Source: Patescibacteria group bacterium (lineage in GTDB: Bacteria; Patescibacteriota; Microgenomatia; UBA1406). From it: a stretch of 64,000 bases of DNA. Location: positions 229,629 through 293,628 of the forward strand of contig JBAYJK010000001.1 of the NCBI GenBank assembly GCA_041665145.1. Direction: 5' to 3'. The notes below the pieces were generated by a model. It was not told where the DNA came from. It did no database searches and saw only the letters and a program-made list of their open reading frames with translations. The translations under genes were made by a program, and so were the position numbers. Numbering within the stretch: position 1 is the first letter of the stretch; each line of letters begins with the position of its first letter. Positions 7,067-61,275 of this stretch are shown piece by piece.

Positions 7067-7516
7067 TCAGTTTTCAATAGTGGTCGAATCCCCAATTTCT
7101 ATATCGTATTTCTGAATAAATCCGGATTTTACTTCCAAAACCGAGTCAAATAAAACAGGAGAATCTATGTATTCTACTCTTCTGTTGTTATGTATCGGAG
7201 CTTTTACATTCTGCACAAGGTGGACGACCGTGTCGTCCCTTATATAAATAAAATCCAGATCAAAAAGCATTTCGTTCATCCAAAACTGTTGGGTCACCGG
7301 AACAGGAAATATAAAAAGCATACCTTCGTGATATCCAATGGGATCATGGTTCGAAAACCCGGCAGCTCTTTCTTGGTCCGTATCCGCAAGAGTCACCTCC
7401 ATTGAAATTTTATTTCCGATAGTTATTCTCTCGTGAGGTTTTGTTTTTGTTGCCCAAACTGTTAGAATACTCATAAAGAGTATCAGGCCGCACAGTAGAA
7501 GAATGACTTTTCTCAT
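7067..7516 (-). CDS. DUF192-family secreted protein
   Basis: N-terminal signal-like MRKVILLLCGLILFMSILTVWA. The GMLFIFP...FWM.NMLFDLDFIYI pattern is typical of DUF192 (COG1430). Confidence 0.7.
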   Translation of the reverse strand: MRKVILLLCGLILFMSILTVWATKTKPHERITIGNKISMEVTLADTDQERAAGFSNHDPIGYHEGMLFIFPVPVTQQFWMNEMLFDLDFIYIRDDTVVHLVQNVKAPIHNNRRVEYIDSPVLFDSVLEVKSGFIQKYDIEIGDSTTIEN

Positions 7517-8552
7517 GATTAAATTTATTATAGACCAAAAGTATAAAAATGAATGGAACAGGGCAGTGTCTCATCCGCTGCAGACGTGGGAATGGGGGGA
7601 AGCACGTAAAGAAAACGGTAACCAAATAGTGCGTATTGGAGAATTTGATGCGGGAGGGAAACTGAAAAGGGCCATTTTCTGCACCGTACACAAAATGCCA
7701 TTCGGGTACACGGTAGTCAACTGTGCTCGGAGCGATTGGCCATCGTTGGATTTATTGGAGTTTATTGGCAGCGAACTTAAAAAAAGACGAAATATTTTTG
7801 TAAAACTGGAACCGGAGGTCTTTCGTGAGGCGGCGGGATTGTACAAGATTCCCTTACTTAAAAAAAAATGGCATGACGGGAAGTTTAACTACGAAAAATC
7901 AAATAGTAGAGTGTTTGCCGAACACACGTTCGTTGTTGACCTGAACCTACCGGAAGATAAACTTTTGGCGAACATGAAGTCGAAAACAAGGTACAATATC
8001 CGCCTTGCTGAAAAGAAAGGTGTTGTGGTGAGGGATGTTACGAATCAACAAGACGGATTTGATACTTTTTATGAATTATACAAACAGACCATACAACGGC
8101 AAAATTACCTGGGGCATTCGTATGAATATCATAAAACGGTTTTTGAGAGAATGCGTATCTATTCTACATTGCTCATCGCGTATTTTGAAGACAAACCATT
8201 AGCAGCATATTATCTGATGTTTTTTAACAAAAAGGCCTACTACGTGTATGGCGGATCTTCCGAAGAAAATAAGGAGGTGATGGCTTCCAACCTCCTCATG
8301 TGGAAAGCTTTGCAGATAGCCAAACAAAAAGGATGTGTCAGTTTTGATATGTGGGGCGCCTTGCCGGAACACTATGATCAAAAAGATCCATGGGCCGGAT
8401 TTCACCGCTTTAAAGAAGGGTACGGCGGGGTGCATAAGGATTATATCGGGTCAGTTGATGTGGTGATGCGGCCGACCGAATACAGAATCTTTTCCGTGTT
8501 ATGGCCATTGCGGACAGCTGTTCTGGAGTTTAAACAACGGCTTAGTCGTTAA
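7515..8552 (+). CDS. FemAB-family peptidoglycan bridge-formation (aminoacyl)transferase-like protein
   Basis: KSKTRYNIRLAEKKGV, YYVYGGSS..NKEVMASNLLMW.ALQ.AK..G, FDMWG and FHRFKEGYGG resemble FemX/FemAB-family proteins. An alternative start lies at 7503. Confidence 0.7.
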   Translation: MIKFIIDQKYKNEWNRAVSHPLQTWEWGEARKENGNQIVRIGEFDAGGKLKRAIFCTVHKMPFGYTVVNCARSDWPSLDLLEFIGSELKKRRNIFVKLEPEVFREAAGLYKIPLLKKKWHDGKFNYEKSNSRVFAEHTFVVDLNLPEDKLLANMKSKTRYNIRLAEKKGVVVRDVTNQQDGFDTFYELYKQTIQRQNYLGHSYEYHKTVFERMRIYSTLLIAYFEDKPLAAYYLMFFNKKAYYVYGGSSEENKEVMASNLLMWKALQIAKQKGCVSFDMWGALPEHYDQKDPWAGFHRFKEGYGGVHKDYIGSVDVVMRPTEYRIFSVLWPLRTAVLEFKQRLSR

Positions 8553-39852: not shown

Positions 39853-40407
39853 CTAGTTACCGTAGACTTTCTGCAGAAGATCAAAAATATCGAAAATGTC
39901 TTTTTCCAAACTCGCGTCTTTTACACCGTATGAAGCAGTAAGTATCTGAACATCTGTCTGGTTGATCTTGATTCTTTGCAGTACATATACTGTCTTGTCC
40001 CCATTAATATATTCGGCAGTCAACTGGGTATATCCTTTTTCGGGTTCATTTTTCTCGCCGGTAATCACAAAAGACGGGATGGCGGAAAAAATTCCTTTTT
40101 CGAGTTTTTGAAGATATGCTTCCGGATCAGCGACTCTCACTGCGGTTTTTGTAAAAACAACTGACGGTTGAATACCTTTACTAACACGTCGCGCTACTTT
40201 GACAGTGTTTTGCGCGCTGTCAGCACTTACGAATGTCCAGTCGTTCGGTAATTGAACAATTGGCGTTGGAGTCACGGTGTTTTTTGATATAAGAGAATGC
40301 TCATTGAGTCGGAAGACAAAAAGAGTTGCAACACCAAATACCAATAAGCCAACGATGATTGCAATAATCTTCTTTGGGAATCCGTTTTTCTTATTTTTCG
40401 TCACCAT
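39853..40407 (-). CDS. Hypothetical membrane-anchored protein
   Basis: ATG 40407 gives MVTKNKKNGFPKKIIAIIVGLLVFGVATLFVF (one TM). No known domain. Directly downstream of the sortase-domain gene. Confidence 0.4.
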   Translation of the reverse strand: MVTKNKKNGFPKKIIAIIVGLLVFGVATLFVFRLNEHSLISKNTVTPTPIVQLPNDWTFVSADSAQNTVKVARRVSKGIQPSVVFTKTAVRVADPEAYLQKLEKGIFSAIPSFVITGEKNEPEKGYTQLTAEYINGDKTVYVLQRIKINQTDVQILTASYGVKDASLEKDIFDIFDLLQKVYGN

Positions 40408-40411
40408 GTTT

Positions 40412-41977
40412 TTAATTAATTTTTTGTGCCGTAACAACAATCCGTATGCTGTTGTCTGCGAAATCACACGTAATGAGTGTCAGTGCCCGATTATCTTTTA
40501 GGATTGCTCCGGTATTGTACTCGTTTACCCGTGCTATATCGGTAACAACAAAGCCGTGGACTGTCTGGTCAATAGTTTTGTAGATCATATCACCTTTATT
40601 CAATTCGACCAGTTTACCGAAGGATCCGGTTGAGTTGTGAGCATAAATAATATTTCCGTACTCAAGCACTTCCCGGTTTCCGATTAGTAATTCTTCGCCG
40701 AGCAATCTGCCCGTATGGAGTAGGGTATGAACATTAATCTTGGGAATATCAAGTGCGACGTTTAATTCGAGAGTGTTGCCGGAGGGCAATTTTGCATGTC
40801 CCTCGGGAGATGCGGATTCTCCGGTTTTCGGAAGTTTTTTGGTTTGTGCACCAAGAACATTGTTGAACGATTCGAGAATGCCTTCAATCAAAGGATTCAA
40901 ATTACTTTCTTCACCGAGAACAGCCGGTGAGCGGGAAGTACTTTCGCCGCTTGCCAATTCTCCTCCACCGGTTCCACCCCACTGAGTCGAGGTACTTGAC
41001 CCTGGTCCAGGAGTTGCGCTCGGGCCCGGTCCAGGAGTAGCTGAAGGGTGTGGTGTTTCTGTTGCTGACGGTCCCGGTATTCCGGTAGCAGTCGGAGTCC
41101 CGCTCGGCGGGATTGTCGGTGTGACTGTCGGTGTTTGGCATGCTGTGTATCTATTGTAAATGACCAATGTCCGATGTGGCCGTTCTGTGTGTAAAACAAT
41201 ATGACCGTCAACATTCATATCCCGTGCATCATCATTAGATGAATCAGAGTCAAAGAGTGTATTGTCATATGGAAACATTGCATTACTTGCCGCCTCTGTT
41301 TCATATTGATCGTTGTAAACAGGATCGGTCCAGCAACCGTTGTCAGGATATGATTCTTCAGTGTAGTAATAATTCCCCATTGGAAGGTTGTAATATGTTA
41401 CGCACTGAGCATCGTTACGTTCGACGGGAGCAAAGTCGGGAAGGTCGGTGTTAAGAGTGAGGGGGGTGGTGAAGGTTGATTGTGGAATTAAACCGTCCGG
41501 GTCTCCCTGCGATGTCATGGGATTCGGAGTGAATCCGCTGATAGTAAATACTGAGCTTGCAGCAAAATTTCCATCATTAACGTTCCCATTAATATCGGCA
41601 ACAACTTTACAAACACGGATTGAACCGAGATTATCCGTCGGCTCGTGTGTTGGGGTTAGTGTCGGCGTCCCGCTCGGCGGGATCGTGGGGGTGGGTGTGC
41701 ATTGTGGTCCACTTGTTGGAGTTGTCGTCGGAGTCACGCTGAGCGTGATTGTCGGAGTAGTAGTCGGAGTTTGTGTTACTGTCGGCGTCGTGGTAGATGT
41801 GGGAATGACCGGTGGTGTTGTAGTTGGGGTTACGCTGAGCGTGATTGTCGGAGTAACAGTCGGAGTTTGTGTTACTGTCGGATACTCTTGCGCGAGTGTC
41901 GCTGATTGGTTCCGTAATTGCAACAACGACAGTAGGAGTAAAAACGTTATTGCGAAACGCGCAAAATAGTTAGCCAT
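40412..41977 (-). CDS. Secreted Thr/Pro-repeat protein with internal LPKTG motif and C-terminal sortase catalytic domain
   Basis: Signal-like N-terminus, PT-rich repeats and a central Cys-containing domain. LPKTG is encoded at 40820-40834. The last ~120 aa have the sortase His (IIYAHNS), Cys (TLITC, Cys codon 40466-40468) and Arg (SIRIVV). Confidence 0.7.
   Translation of the reverse strand: MANYFARFAITFLLLLSLLQLRNQSATLAQEYPTVTQTPTVTPTITLSVTPTTTPPVIPTSTTTPTVTQTPTTTPTITLSVTPTTTPTSGPQCTPTPTIPPSGTPTLTPTHEPTDNLGSIRVCKVVADINGNVNDGNFAASSVFTISGFTPNPMTSQGDPDGLIPQSTFTTPLTLNTDLPDFAPVERNDAQCVTYYNLPMGNYYYTEESYPDNGCWTDPVYNDQYETEAASNAMFPYDNTLFDSDSSNDDARDMNVDGHIVLHTERPHRTLVIYNRYTACQTPTVTPTIPPSGTPTATGIPGPSATETPHPSATPGPGPSATPGPGSSTSTQWGGTGGGELASGESTSRSPAVLGEESNLNPLIEGILESFNNVLGAQTKKLPKTGESASPEGHAKLPSGNTLELNVALDIPKINVHTLLHTGRLLGEELLIGNREVLEYGNIIYAHNSTGSFGKLVELNKGDMIYKTIDQTVHGFVVTDIARVNEYNTGAILKDNRALTLITCDFADNSIRIVVTAQKIN
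41736..41882. repeat. 96-nt-period tandem duplication inside the TP-repeat coding region
   Basis: The 51-nt segment ACGCTGAGCGTGATTGTCGGAGTAGTAGTCGGAGTTTGTGTTACTGTCGG (41736-41786) recurs at 41832-41882 with two mismatches. It encodes PTVTQTPT(V/T)TPTITLSVTP twice. Confidence 0.8.
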
Positions 41978-42119: not shown

Positions 42120-42468
42120 GGTCGCCTCCGTCGGCGACCCGCGATTTTGAGCGGGTCGCTTGAATGCGACCCGCCGTTTGAGGCGGGAGTGGTTGCATGA
42201 AGATATGTTTTATTATGTTTATGTACTGAAAAGCGAGAAAGACCACCAGCTATATGTTGGTAAAACTAAGGATTTAAGAAAAAGGTTTAAGGAACACAAT
42301 GATGGGAGGGTACTCGCTACTAAGGGAAGAAGACCTTTTGTCCTGGTTTATTATGAGGCGTTTTCGAATACAACGGATTGTTCGCGCGAGGAACTTTATC
42401 TAAAGTCTGGTATTGGTAGGGAATCTCTAAAGCACAGGCTAAGTAATTTGGACATTATAAATGATAAT
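42120..42468 (+). mobile_element. Putative GIY-YIG-encoding insertion bounded by the 12-bp direct repeats
   Basis: A 349-bp segment between the two repeat copies. It contains a GC-rich hairpin array followed by a small GIY-YIG ORF. Confidence 0.4.
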
Positions 42469-42513
42469 TGGAGAGGTGCCAGAGTGGTTGAACGGGCTAG
42501 TCTCGAAAACTAG
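42205..42513 (+). CDS. GIY-YIG nuclease-family small protein
   Basis: MFYYVYVLKSEKDHQLYVGKTKDLRKRFKEHN (GIY...YVG...R...H) and the YLKSG..RE motif. The ORF only terminates 44 nt inside the tRNA gene. Confidence 0.8.
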   Translation: MFYYVYVLKSEKDHQLYVGKTKDLRKRFKEHNDGRVLATKGRRPFVLVYYEAFSNTTDCSREELYLKSGIGRESLKHRLSNLDIINDNWRGARVVERASLEN

Positions 42514-42556
42514 TAAGGCCGCAAGGTCTTCGGGGGTTCGAATCCCCCCCTCTCCG
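42470..42556 (+). tRNA. tRNA-Ser (anticodon CGA), type II with long variable arm
   Basis: Acceptor GGAGAGG/CCTCTCC, anticodon stem CTAGT/ACTAG with loop CTCGAAA, variable arm TAAGGCCGCAAGGTCTTC and T-arm GGGGG-TTCGAAT-CCCCC, discriminator G. CCA is not encoded. Collinear with E. coli tRNA-Ser. Confidence 0.9.
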
Positions 42557-42714
42557 CATAAAGTCTTCGGTTGCTCCAAGACCCGTCTACTATGCTCGAT
42601 TAGCCCTGTGTGGCTTGCTAAAAAGGCGACGAAAAACGCAAGTATCCCGAACATAGCCTGTAATGTAGAAAATCGCCTAAATGACCCTCAAGGTATTTGC
42701 GCTCGGTTCTAAGC

Positions 42715-43362
42715 TTATACCTGAATAGCAGAAGGGCTACTTTTTACCTCAGGAAATTTAAATTTGACAGCAAATAAAAATAAATAAGTATTTCCTAAAT
42801 AATTATGTTCTTCGAAATTGAACCATTTGTCATAACCATCTGTATAACCCTGTAACTTACCTATAAAATTTTTTCCTATAAAACATTGAATGGATATTCC
42901 TGTTGCCTGATTTGGAATAAGTATATTCTCAATGTTGGTGAATAAACTATCCGGTGTCTTAGTCTTTTTATTTACGAAAAGTTTATCAATTGATGAATTT
43001 ACTAAATTAACACCGATTCCTATTGGAGTCTTCATAAGTAATGTTGGATTTTGAAGGTTGAAATCTTTGCCTTTAAATAAGTCTAATTCTTTCTTACCTG
43101 GAATCGCCATATACTGATTCTGAGGGTTATTTTGAGCCTTAATAATTACCTCTTCTATTACTTCTTTTCCGTTCTTGTGAATGGAAACAGTTTTAAATGT
43201 CAATCTATCGTTAACAGTGTGAAGGCTAAAATGAACATCCACTTTTTTATTGGCGACATTTGTTTTTGGAAGTGAGATGTTAAAATCTTGTCCGTTAATC
43301 AAAATAATTTTTACTAAATTAAAATCATTTACTTTTATTCTCAGAAGATGTTGGATGCCCAC
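42715..43362 (-). CDS. Hypothetical protein
   Basis: 215-aa ORF with no recognisable motif. First gene of the island. Confidence 0.4.
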   Translation of the reverse strand: MGIQHLLRIKVNDFNLVKIILINGQDFNISLPKTNVANKKVDVHFSLHTVNDRLTFKTVSIHKNGKEVIEEVIIKAQNNPQNQYMAIPGKKELDLFKGKDFNLQNPTLLMKTPIGIGVNLVNSSIDKLFVNKKTKTPDSLFTNIENILIPNQATGISIQCFIGKNFIGKLQGYTDGYDKWFNFEEHNYLGNTYLFLFAVKFKFPEVKSSPSAIQV

Positions 43363-43392
43363 CCTTTAATTTTACCTCTAACGGGATGATAA

Positions 43393-44733
43393 TTAAATTA
43401 AAAAGAGTTGCCTATCTGTTAGCCTAAATTTTGATGTCACTCCTGCCAATATCTTGATTCTTTCCTCAGGAGTTCCAAATTGGAGAACGTGGAGTAAATA
43501 TTCTTTGAGCATCTCAGTATGAGTTTCACTATATTCTCTCGGGCTTTGTTCGCCTGTATTGTGAGGGGTGATCTCAATTCGAGGAATATAATCACTATTT
43601 ACGTTTGCTTTAAAATGCTGCAATCGTTTTACTTCTACTTCAAACTCTTGCATAAGATAAGAGGTATTAAGTTTTATTTTTGGTAAATAACCAATGAGCT
43701 GTTTGATCAGTTCTTGCTCGGTAATATATGGTTCAGGACAATCGTACCTCTTGATTCTATTGCAGTGATAATAAATGTGTGAGTTTACGATGTTTGCTTT
43801 GGTTCTTCGATATTTTAGTTCAGCAGTGACGCTTCCACCGCATGATCCGCAAATGCAAATTTTCTTGAACGGAAACAGTTGTTTATTCCATTGTCTCGGT
43901 GCAACTTGGAGTTGAATTTGGACTCTTTCAAAGAGTGCTTTTGTAATAAGTGGTTCATATGTCCCTTTGTACCATATATTTCCGTACTGAAACTCTCCGT
44001 AGTAAAAAGCGTTTTGAAGAGCAACGTAGATCTTGCTCAACGGCATCTTGCATCCGTTTTTTGTAGTGAATCCAATATCGTCAAGCCATTTTTTCACCAT
44101 TCGTCCTGAGAATCCCTGATCCGCAACTTTATGAAAAATCTGTTTAATAACTGGTGCTCGTTCAGGATCAAGTTCAACCGTTGAGATTCTATTTACTTTC
44201 AATACATTTCGATAACCTATCGGTGCGACTCCTGGTCTAATTCCAATCTGGCATTTATTCCGAAGTCCTCGTTTAACATTAACACCTCTATTATCATTTT
44301 CCAGTTTTGCTTGTGAGCAAAGAATCATCAGTAAGAATTTCTCGTTGGGATTATCGGTAAACGATTGAGAGTAGGTTTTGATATGGATCAGTTTCCCTTG
44401 ATCCATCAGGTCTACAATTCGCCCCAAGTCTCCAGCATTTCGAGATAACCGATCAGGTGCCCATGTCAGAATACTGTTGTATCTTTCTTCAGTAACGCCA
44501 TGCAGAAGGTTGTTAAACTCTGGTCGTTGTCCTGATTCTTTGGCAGAGTGACTCTCAGTAATTGTTTCCGTAATATTGAGTTTCTCTCGCTTGGCAAGAA
44601 GTTGCATTTCTTTTAGTTGACCATCAATAGACATTGCTTGTCGCTCATCTGATTCGCTCGATTTACGGGCATAGAGGCAGTACTTTAGCCTGATAGTATC
44701 TTTCATCAGGTCACAAGGTACCGCAATAGTCAT
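43393..44733 (-). CDS. Large serine recombinase (resolvase/integrase family)
   Basis: N-terminal catalytic region CLYARKSSESDERQ..SIDGQ. The central recombinase domain and the Cys-rich zinc ribbon (CICGSCGG ... YYHCNR) are typical of large serine integrases. Confidence 0.85.
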   Translation of the reverse strand: MTIAVPCDLMKDTIRLKYCLYARKSSESDERQAMSIDGQLKEMQLLAKREKLNITETITESHSAKESGQRPEFNNLLHGVTEERYNSILTWAPDRLSRNAGDLGRIVDLMDQGKLIHIKTYSQSFTDNPNEKFLLMILCSQAKLENDNRGVNVKRGLRNKCQIGIRPGVAPIGYRNVLKVNRISTVELDPERAPVIKQIFHKVADQGFSGRMVKKWLDDIGFTTKNGCKMPLSKIYVALQNAFYYGEFQYGNIWYKGTYEPLITKALFERVQIQLQVAPRQWNKQLFPFKKICICGSCGGSVTAELKYRRTKANIVNSHIYYHCNRIKRYDCPEPYITEQELIKQLIGYLPKIKLNTSYLMQEFEVEVKRLQHFKANVNSDYIPRIEITPHNTGEQSPREYSETHTEMLKEYLLHVLQFGTPEERIKILAGVTSKFRLTDRQLFLI

Positions 44734-60099: not shown

Positions 60100-61275
60100 A
60101 TGAACAAAAATAAAGGGTTATTAAACATAACGCAACTCGCGGTAATCGGGCTGGGGTTGTTATTAGTAGGGTTTCTCGTAATAAAGACGGGTTTTAATTT
60201 TGTTCAAAAGACAAATGCTCAGACAGGTGGAGCGATATGTCAAAGCGAGTTTGATGTGTTTACTCCAACACCGACAATAACCGTAACGCCAACGAGCACA
60301 AAAACACCTACACCAACACCGACAAAAACACCTACGCCCACACCCACAAAGACTCCAACGCCAACTTTAACGAACACACCGACACCGACTTCCACGAAGA
60401 CACCCACTCCTACATCAACAAAGACTCCGACACCGACAAAAACCAAGACCCCGACTCCAACAAAGACGAAGACACCCACACCCACGCCTGCAAGTATGAC
60501 CTGTGAAGTCGGCGGGAAGAAGTTTAACGACGGAAATGCTGATAGGGAATTTAATATGGGTTACTGTAATGATATAGGTTGCGACAGTATGGATGGCGTG
60601 CAAGATTGGACATTCCAATTGTATCGGTTAAACACAGATAGTTCACGGACGTTACTCGGAACTACGACAACCGATGACAACACGTGGTCGGGATGGCCAA
60701 ACTCATTTGCGTTCCGAAATCTTGATTGTAGTAAGCAATATATAGTGAAAGAGGTCTTGAAGAGTGGATGGGTAGCTTCAGGTGATTTCAAAGACGGCGT
60801 TCAAGATGGTTTCTCAACACCTCCAGTTTCTGGCGGGAGTGAAGTAAAATTCCATTTTGTACAAGAGCAAATAGTTATTGATACTAATGATGGCTACAAT
60901 GGAACAGCAGTCAGCGGGTTCCACGTAGGAAACAGACCGGTCGGTACACCGTCCTCCGTTACGAGACCATTGGCAAGTGGTGACGTTAAATCCATGCCTC
61001 TTACAGAGACAACCACATCACAAGTCAGTTGTACAAATTGGAAGGTTACCTTTAATCAACCGCAGTCAATTGCGTATAAGTTGACAATTGATGTAACAAC
61101 AAACGGGAAAACCAGTCGGTATTATCAGTCGAGAACTGCAGTCAGTACATTATCGCGAAGTATTGTGAGGAAATGGGGTACCAAACCGGCCGCAAAGAGC
61201 ATACTTACTTTTACCTTGACCGGAGGATCGGAAACGGTAAAATTGAAGAATGAGATGCCCTCAGGATGCAAGTAA
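60100..61275 (+). CDS. Secreted protein with long (T/K)TPTPT repeat and SdrD-B/CNA-B-like domain
   Basis: Signal/[18 protein letters not shown], about 75 aa of TKTPTPTP repeats, then [15 protein letters not shown]...[11 protein letters not shown], reminiscent of B-type repeat domains. Confidence 0.5.
60262..60489. repeat. Imperfect tandem nucleotide repeats encoding (T/K)TPTPT
   Basis: Repeated ACnCCnACnCCnACnAAnAC units are visible throughout 60262-60489. Confidence 0.8.

Follow-up and report, generated by a model that had tools for sequence, protein, structure and literature searches.

A 64,000-nt window of contig JBAYJK010000001.1 (assembly GCA_041665145.1, Patescibacteria group bacterium) contains a single gene in which a sorting-type motif stands directly N-terminal of a complete sortase. 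This architecture is genuine and unusual; to our knowledge, sortases have always been described as separate from their substrates. The gene is an open reading frame (ORF) at 40412..41977 on the minus strand (positions throughout are in window numbering), which starts with ATG and encodes 521 amino acids (aa) uninterrupted by stop or frameshift. The encoded protein consists, in order, of a signal-like N-terminus, Pro/Thr (PT)-rich repeats, an orphan domain with four Cys, a PT/PG-rich linker, LPKTG, KLPSGN and the sortase. LPKTG and its surroundings recur in a whole family of related proteins. Tentatively, and at somewhat less than an even chance, we read LPKTG as a built-in sorting signal that is self-processed, by cleavage in cis or in trans. 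Judged from the sequences, the sortase probably binds its own motif and may cut itself. The parts of the gene are as follows.

41891..41977, minus strand: residues 1-29, candidate Sec-type signal sequence or signal anchor (MANYFARFAITFLLLLSLLQLRNQSATLA followed by Q), holding the sole hydrophobic segment
41642..41890, minus strand: residues 30-112, Thr/Pro-rich repeat region 1, with two copies of TVTQTPT.TPTITLSVTPTTTP and one of TPTIPPSGTPT
41135..41641, minus strand: residues 113-281, orphan passenger domain, beta-rich, with Cys123, Cys192, Cys215 and Cys280 (from sequence and comparison with an orthologue)
40964..41134, minus strand: residues 282-338, PT/PG-rich linker 2, which opens with the second TPTIPPSGTPT copy
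40775..40963, minus strand: residues 339-401, pre-domain with GELASGESTSR, VLG, the NPLIEGILESF helix, VLG, LPKTG and KLPSGN (from the family alignment and AlphaFold)
40820..40834, minus strand: residues 382-386, LPKTG, with the putative scissile bond Thr385-Gly386 (from sequence and the family alignment)
40775..40792, minus strand: residues 396-401, KLPSGN (from the family alignment)
40415..40774, minus strand: residues 402-521, compact sortase catalytic domain (Pfam PF04203, AlphaFold, Foldseek)
40637-40639, minus strand: His447, catalytic, in IIYAHNS
40466-40468, minus strand: Cys504, catalytic, in TLITC
40442-40444, minus strand: Arg512, catalytic, in SIRIVV
40412-40414, minus strand: stop codon of the sortase gene

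Much of this layout had been recognised in an original prediction made from the DNA alone. Its position for the LPKTG codons (40820-40834) is exact to the nucleotide, and the signal-like N-terminus, the long PT repeats, the Cys-containing central domain and the second PT/PG linker are all present in the ORF. The His in IIYAHNS, the Cys in TLITC and the Arg in SIRIVV that it singled out are His447, Cys504 and Arg512, and the junction between motif and enzyme, which it had seen as free of frameshifts and stops, is indeed intact. One point needs correction: the sortase domain had been placed about 20 residues beyond the motifs, and in the AlphaFold model the fold begins right after KLPSGN, with strand 1 starting at residue 402.

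LPKTG forms part of a conserved extension of the enzyme. A profile search over 1.84 billion representative proteins gave 240 matches, and about 55 of the best 75 of these carry a pre-domain of about 65 aa with the consensus VLG-x3-N(Y)NPL(V/I)(E/D)GI(K/R)xS(Y/F)xGxVLGxxT-L[P/A]xT[G/A]-about 10 aa-KLPSGN-about 9 aa-strand 1. The family comprises at least 55 clusters at 50% identity, and columns were counted in an alignment of 52 sequences. At the motif, L is found in 43 of the 52 and T in 50; the second position is P (30), A (12) or M (4), x is unconstrained, and the last position is G in 26 and A in 20; P1' is G, A or S in 49/52. Spacing is nearly fixed, with 61-63 residues from the motif Thr to the catalytic His in 45/52 members and 22-25 residues from the same Thr to strand 1 in 47/52. 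A sorting-like pentapeptide occupies the motif position in 49/58 family members, as against 0/75 other sortase representatives from the same search. KLPSGN was originally described as a similar motif 10 residues later; it is there, and its columns (K 34, L 42, P 48, S/T 48, G 30 and N 46 of 52) are better conserved than those of the LPKTG-type motif.

Members without any passenger change the view of what the module is. With the C-terminal 183 aa as query, a word-indexed search returned only three homologues, of about 200 aa and 46-48% identity, in which a signal sequence is followed only by SGEIASGESTTR, LPQTG, about 17 residues and the sortase. The family profile yielded no additional homologues in the word-indexed search, a scan of a genome collection gave only distant ordinary sortases from Ruminococcus and Acidimicrobiales, and a metagenome scan with a narrower alignment gave five loci. 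Thus, of the original claim, the LPXTG-type motif in front of a complete sortase stands; the idea of a simple adhesin-sortase fusion does not, given that the motif lies within a conserved pre-domain of about 65 residues that is also found in passenger-less homologues of 200 aa. By these alignments, the motif-bearing extension defines a distinct family of patescibacterial sortases.

An artefact was considered in two forms: a chimera or frameshift that had merged the genes of a surface protein and a sortase, and an LPKTG present by chance. The second has some force for one sequence taken alone: LPxTG appears somewhere in about 5% of shuffles of the 521-aa protein, and a lone occurrence proves little. 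It is because the motif is conserved at an aligned position across the family that the comparison marks it as non-random. As to the first, the identical 521-aa protein is encoded on contigs that were assembled independently, in ENA ERZ27249449, in Logan SRR6484324 and under two NCBI accessions; its copies include one on a 438-kb ENA contig, the longest contig, which carries MFA6005332.1, reaches 918,908 bp, and both NCBI entries are named "MAG: sortase [Patescibacteria group bacterium]". A syntenic orthologue, P0005, is a single gene of 553 aa with the same layout, central domain and LPTTG included, and its gene order (sortase, a gene of ~184 aa, dnaG, sigma factor) matches that of the window. 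The architecture, which the original prediction had proposed to look for in related genomes, was found in P0005 and in >50 diverged clusters, and in none of the relatives found do surface protein and sortase occupy separate genes. An assembly fusion, left open at first, is therefore not borne out, and an artefact or chance motif, rejected on the independent assemblies and the family conservation, keeps a vanishingly small probability.

The catalytic domain is that of a sortase by profile, triad and fold. Pfam Sortase PF04203 matches residues 442-519 at 41.8 bits against a cut-off of 26.6, the range for the rest of the family being 42-61 bits. All 52 aligned family sequences have the His-Cys-Arg triad, and TLITC conforms to the TLxTC signature. 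Because the triad is invariant throughout, the enzyme should be active, as far as sequence can tell. It falls into none of the known classes that were tested (A, C, D and GN). The general subfamily model TIGR01076 (27.7 vs 39.35) and every class-specific NCBIfam model score below cut-off, including the class C model NF033745 (21.9 vs 160) and the class D/GN models NF033746 (12.9 vs 165) and TIGR03784 (14.5 vs 158.25). There was no match to a class E model; several good core matches are to class E structures, and a sub-clade of the family has an internal LAxT[G/A].

Nor does the protein end as a canonical sortase substrate does. The LPXTG-anchor models gave no match in it. No hydrophobic stretch comes after LPKTG, the Thr385-Gly386 bond being followed by 136 soluble residues, and a C-terminal hydrophobic segment is absent both here (the chain ends 9 residues past Arg512) and from the other family members. 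The original observation that hydrophobic anchor and basic tail are missing behind LPKTG, with the sortase in their place, thus proved right. The DP[F/W/Y] lid motif of class C sortases is likewise absent from the loop, where L[P/A]xT[G/A] and KLPSGN stand instead.

AlphaFold2, run on the module with the family alignment and read from the predicted local distance difference test (pLDDT), secondary-structure and Foldseek tables, gave a model with pLDDT 87.5 and a predicted template modelling score of 0.82. The catalytic domain (pLDDT 91-98) has the eight-stranded beta-barrel of sortases. The extension is predicted to form a helix at residues 362-370 (module residues 13-21, NPLIEGILES) and then ordered coil up to 401, with pLDDT 65-81 overall and 78 for the LPKTG block; 15 residues separate Gly386 from strand 1. 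In Foldseek, solved structures from sortase classes C, E and A match the model at probability 1.0. The top matches are class C sortases, aligned over 180-195 columns that include their N-terminal extension, at a root-mean-square deviation (rmsd) of 8-10 Å; class A and E cores superpose at 2.8-5.6 Å. We infer from the model that LPKTG may dock in the substrate groove.

On the reading that we favour, the extension of ~65 residues (helix plus loop) would hold the L-[P/A]-x-T-[G/A] pentapeptide at a fixed distance before strand 1, and after Sec export its loop would lie over the substrate groove of its own enzyme, in the manner of a class C lid. Because this loop would be a cleavable motif and not a mimic, Cys504 could attack the Thr385-Gly386 bond, in the same chain or in a neighbouring copy. 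The product would be a thioester joining the N-terminal passenger (PT stalk and Cys domain) to the enzyme, to be resolved by an amine of the envelope, either in a peptidoglycan stem peptide or cross-bridge or, possibly, in a Lys of a membrane-anchored partner. The passenger would thereby become fixed covalently at the surface, and a catalytic fragment of 136 residues, now starting with Gly and with its active site uncovered, would be set free.

Several features argue for self-processing. The motif looks like a sorting signal rather than a packing motif, with its free x, its Thr in 50/52 and its small P1'. Known lids are uncleavable mimics, and here a seemingly cleavable consensus has been kept. 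The fixed spacing of the motif and its restriction to this family point the same way, as does, by analogy, a linker of 15 residues, which falls within the working range of engineered fusions. Changes in the motif (P vs A/M; G vs A) also track the residue that follows the catalytic Cys (D or S) and the one that precedes the catalytic Arg (L or Y), a covariation that is suggestive and is treated as weak, being confounded with clade. The lack of a canonical C-terminal sorting signal in the window, in a 10-kb extension and in related loci (~130 kb sampled, equal to ~8% of the ~919-kb genome of this organism for its own part, the remainder coming from related organisms) also fits a signal located inside the enzyme's own chain.

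Other observations weigh against it. In the 200-aa homologues the passenger is only a peptide of ~35 residues, the anchoring of which would make little sense. Cleavage would also leave the catalytic domain without a tether, a waste unless it is used once or held by a partner. KLPSGN, the better conserved element, has no role in the proposed mechanism. In about 15% of members the motif is degenerate (VVNTY, IVNTS, TVQTD) and does not look cleavable. The canonical motif is kept in 23/40 passenger-bearing and in 7/12 small members, a comparison that does not appear to discriminate between models.

The cis-autoprocessing or pre-loaded acyl-enzyme first proposed for this protein would account for these data, and an uncleaved lid would do so almost as well. 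In that case LPKTG would be an autoinhibitory pseudo-substrate like that of class C sortases, the groove being occupied in a non-hydrolysed geometry; the signal anchor would stay uncleaved, the PT stalk would position the enzyme in or beyond the wall, and the substrates would be encoded elsewhere in the genome. We regard this as the main alternative, a serious possibility and one more probably wrong than right. It turns the 200-aa homologues naturally into anchor, short linker, lid and enzyme, avoids the problem of releasing the enzyme, and would accommodate members with degenerate, probably uncleavable motifs. The topology is that of the helices and lid of class C sortases, which are the best structural matches and in which an extension of helices and loop bears a DP[F/W/Y] lid that overlaps the LPAT substrate as an uncleaved pseudo-substrate. 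The AXA-like site behind the hydrophobic segment is no proof of cleavage. Staphylococcus aureus SrtA has such a site and retains its anchor. A further protein of the window (60100-61275, plus strand) also combines an N-terminal hydrophobic segment with a PT linker and lacks a sorting signal. Against such a lid, a perfect substrate ought to be cut by its own enzyme, and all known lids are the non-cleavable DP[FWY]; moreover, Thr (96%) and a small P1' (94%) are kept here although they matter mainly for the chemical step, and no canonical substrates are found in the ~130 kb sampled, which take in about 8% of the organism's own genome.

It is distinctly less probable that the extension carries a conserved structural or interaction motif located away from the active site, which packs on the barrel or binds a partner or peptidoglycan, and that its likeness to a sorting signal is coincidental. 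Such a role would fit KLPSGN, which is not a sorting motif and is conserved as well or better, and the fact that Pro stands at motif position 2 in only 30/52 sequences; the Foldseek superpositions that include the extension, at an rmsd of 8-10 Å, do not demonstrate equivalence to a lid. On the other hand, a free x, a near-invariant Thr and a small P1' follow the exact logic of a sorting signal, the variants found in the family (LPxTG, LPxTA and LAxTG) coincide with known class-specific motifs, and motif changes go together with changes in the neighbours of the catalytic Cys and Arg. According to a review of sortases, these three variants are the recognition motifs of classes A/C/F, D and E, respectively.

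The N-terminal part of the protein looks suited to export. Residues 1-24 are the only hydrophobic segment of the 521-aa protein, with T-L-A/Q next, the slash marking the putative cut; nearly all full-length members of the family likewise begin with one hydrophobic segment and a small-x-small site behind it, and signal-peptide cleavage may take place by this rule of thumb. Beyond it, the unit TVTQTPT.TPTITLSVTPTTTP is found twice, at residues 34 and 66, within two near-identical units of 22 residues in region 30-112, and most family members have PT linkers similar to these. The central domain (113-281) had no match in Pfam or among PDB sequences, and a word-indexed protein search with it was also empty; an AlphaFold model built from two sequences only (pLDDT 40) was unusable. 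The domain is 74% identical to its counterpart in P0005, where all four Cys are kept.

Across the family, the passengers differ widely: some members have none, and others have PT-rich sequence only, Cys-rich stretches, fn3, TSP1 (together with fn3) or the orphan Cys domain. Because this region varies from member to member, the passenger appears, on the alignments, to be the variable insert, and the LPXTG-sortase module the constant part. Between the window protein and P0005 (locus L011) the order of conservation is reversed, with 74% identity in the passenger domain and about 48% in the sortase module, which suggests strong constraint on this passenger. Two copies of TPTIPPSGTPT, at 41660-41692 (residues 96-106) and 41090-41122 (residues 286-296), are near-identical in DNA and flank the central Cys domain; the pair resembles the trace that a domain insertion or a recombination between PT linkers would leave. 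In several members a short Cys/Pro-rich stretch (e.g. CCPPLTPCPDCEIPTITCPPCP) lies between the signal sequence and the PT linker, as in L015 (5473-6555) and L018 (959-2071). A second secreted-looking protein of the window, the 391-aa product of 60100-61275 on the plus strand, has a hydrophobic segment at its N-terminus, a long TPTPTK-type linker and a beta-rich domain that contains Cys, with neither LPXTG nor a C-terminal anchor.

Downstream of the sortase gene lies a candidate partner, and a promoter-like site precedes the sortase gene.

39853..40407, minus strand: partner gene, whose 184-aa product comprises a membrane anchor at the N-terminus, a short PT linker, QLPxxW and, at residues of about 45-184, an alpha/beta ectodomain with the invariant Lys (Lys70); the gene starts 4 nt after the sortase stop codon
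42002..42030, minus strand: promoter-like site TTGCAA-17-TACAAT with extended TG, 25 nt 5' of the sortase start codon, a consensus match only

The number of promoter-like consensus sites in this region does not exceed that expected from shuffled sequence. The partner is a more consistent feature. Its homologues, which share an N-terminal membrane anchor, LPxGW and an invariant Lys, stand directly downstream of family sortases in 9/10 loci with downstream DNA, and four of the nine, which lie outside the set used to build the profile, were recovered at E values of 1e-33 to 1e-43. The sole locus without the partner gene is that of a small, 201-aa sortase homologue. In Pfam the partner has weak, sub-threshold matches to DcrB, LpqN and PsbP; its profile has no match in the PDB.

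This linkage invites an extension of the self-processing model, which we think possible and rather doubtful. Each passenger would be fused to its own, perhaps single-use, sortase; the thioester at Thr385 would form in cis and the passenger would pass to an acceptor in the envelope. The partner, with its invariant Lys, could be that covalent acceptor, through an isopeptide bond as in pili, or it could be the dock of the released enzyme. As to other acceptors, a FemAB-family protein is encoded at 7503-8552 on the plus strand (Pfam PF02388, in the pre-computed annotation). Enzymes of this family build peptidoglycan cross-bridges, the usual nucleophile of sortases. Because the window encodes one, a cross-bridge and with it an amine nucleophile of Gly/Ala type are plausible.

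The neighbourhood also bears on whether the motif serves a separate housekeeping sortase, the attached domain then acting as a retention or leaving group or as a soluble enzyme that is released. The motif is canonical and reaction in trans is the normal mode of sortases. Yet the 64-kb window and each of the sampled loci contain just one sortase-type ORF, a trans-acting membrane sortase would have little time to find a motif that lacks a membrane-retention segment, and the motif covaries with the active-site neighbours of its own domain. This explanation is accordingly improbable, more so than a purely structural role of the motif.

The sortase gene has as its neighbours nth, dnaG, a tRNA gene and the partner gene described above. 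No gene for an LPXTG pilin was found in the sampled loci. One homologue of ~200 aa occupies the same position as the window gene, flanked by dnaG on one side and by a GIY-YIG gene with tRNA-Ser(cga) on the other. In the window, a GIY-YIG nuclease ORF (42160-42513) overlaps tRNA-Ser(cga) (42470-42557) with its 3' end; beyond them lies a serine recombinase gene (43393-44733, minus strand), and G+C falls to 0.37-0.39 over ~42-48 kb. Sequence features of the region 42160-44733 indicate that an element has probably integrated at tRNA-Ser(cga). In a related genome (L006) the tRNA gene adjoins the sortase gene, and the contig, of 1.76 kb, ends just past the GIY-YIG gene, before any position at which a recombinase could stand.

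The gene comes from an uncultivated, ultra-small member of the Patescibacteria, also called the Candidate Phyla Radiation (CPR), epibiotic organisms of whose cell surface very little is known. In the literature found, CPR sortases are mentioned as present only, and a sortase family has been reported to be near-ubiquitous in Microgenomates. The literature covered, which was incomplete and does not prove novelty, held no account of a naturally occurring sortase that bears an internal sorting motif. If the proposals made here are correct, the family would be either a link between real substrates and the pseudo-substrate lids of pilus sortases or a means of surface attachment free of retention signals. 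Self-sorting in particular would amount to a pathway without a membrane-retention signal and to a natural counterpart of engineered autocyclases. A very small catalytic domain (~120 residues) together with a cis-acting motif could also find use in protein ligation or in self-cleaving tags.

Four known systems offer points of comparison. Canonical LPXTG surface proteins share with the window protein the signal sequence, the variable passenger, the Pro/Thr-rich region and an LPXTG followed by an acidic residue, and differ in that their hydrophobic segment and basic tail are replaced here by the enzyme. Housekeeping sortases of classes A, D and E have the same compact barrel, His-Cys-Arg triad and TLxTC, and the motif variants of the family (LPxTG, LPxTA and LAxTG) mirror the preferences of these classes; none of them has been described with an internal sorting motif.

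Class C sortases (SrtC1 and SrtC2 of group B Streptococcus (GBS), SrtC-1 of Streptococcus pneumoniae and SrtA of Corynebacterium diphtheriae) come closer, in that the barrel likewise follows an extension of helix and loop of ~50-65 residues, and the loop Pro precedes the catalytic His by 71-72 residues in class C and by 64 here. The pentapeptide, in contrast, is a true L[P/A]xT[G/A] in the window family and DP[F/W/Y] in class C, and the window family has neither a C-terminal transmembrane helix nor nearby pilin genes; it has large variable passengers upstream and a DcrB/LpqN-like partner gene downstream. In the engineered autocyclases, a target is joined through LPGTG and a linker of 7-19 aa to SrtA, which forms an intramolecular thioester, cleaves itself from the target and is released, the reach required of the linker being given as about 35-45 Å (PMC9985607). 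Cargo, LPXTG, short linker and sortase follow one another in identical order in the window protein, with a natural linker of 15 aa; unlike the engineered constructs, the window protein is natural, secreted and conserved in its lineage, and its linker contains KLPSGN. By analogy, the family protein is most like a lidded class C sortase and an engineered autocyclase, and it differs from both.

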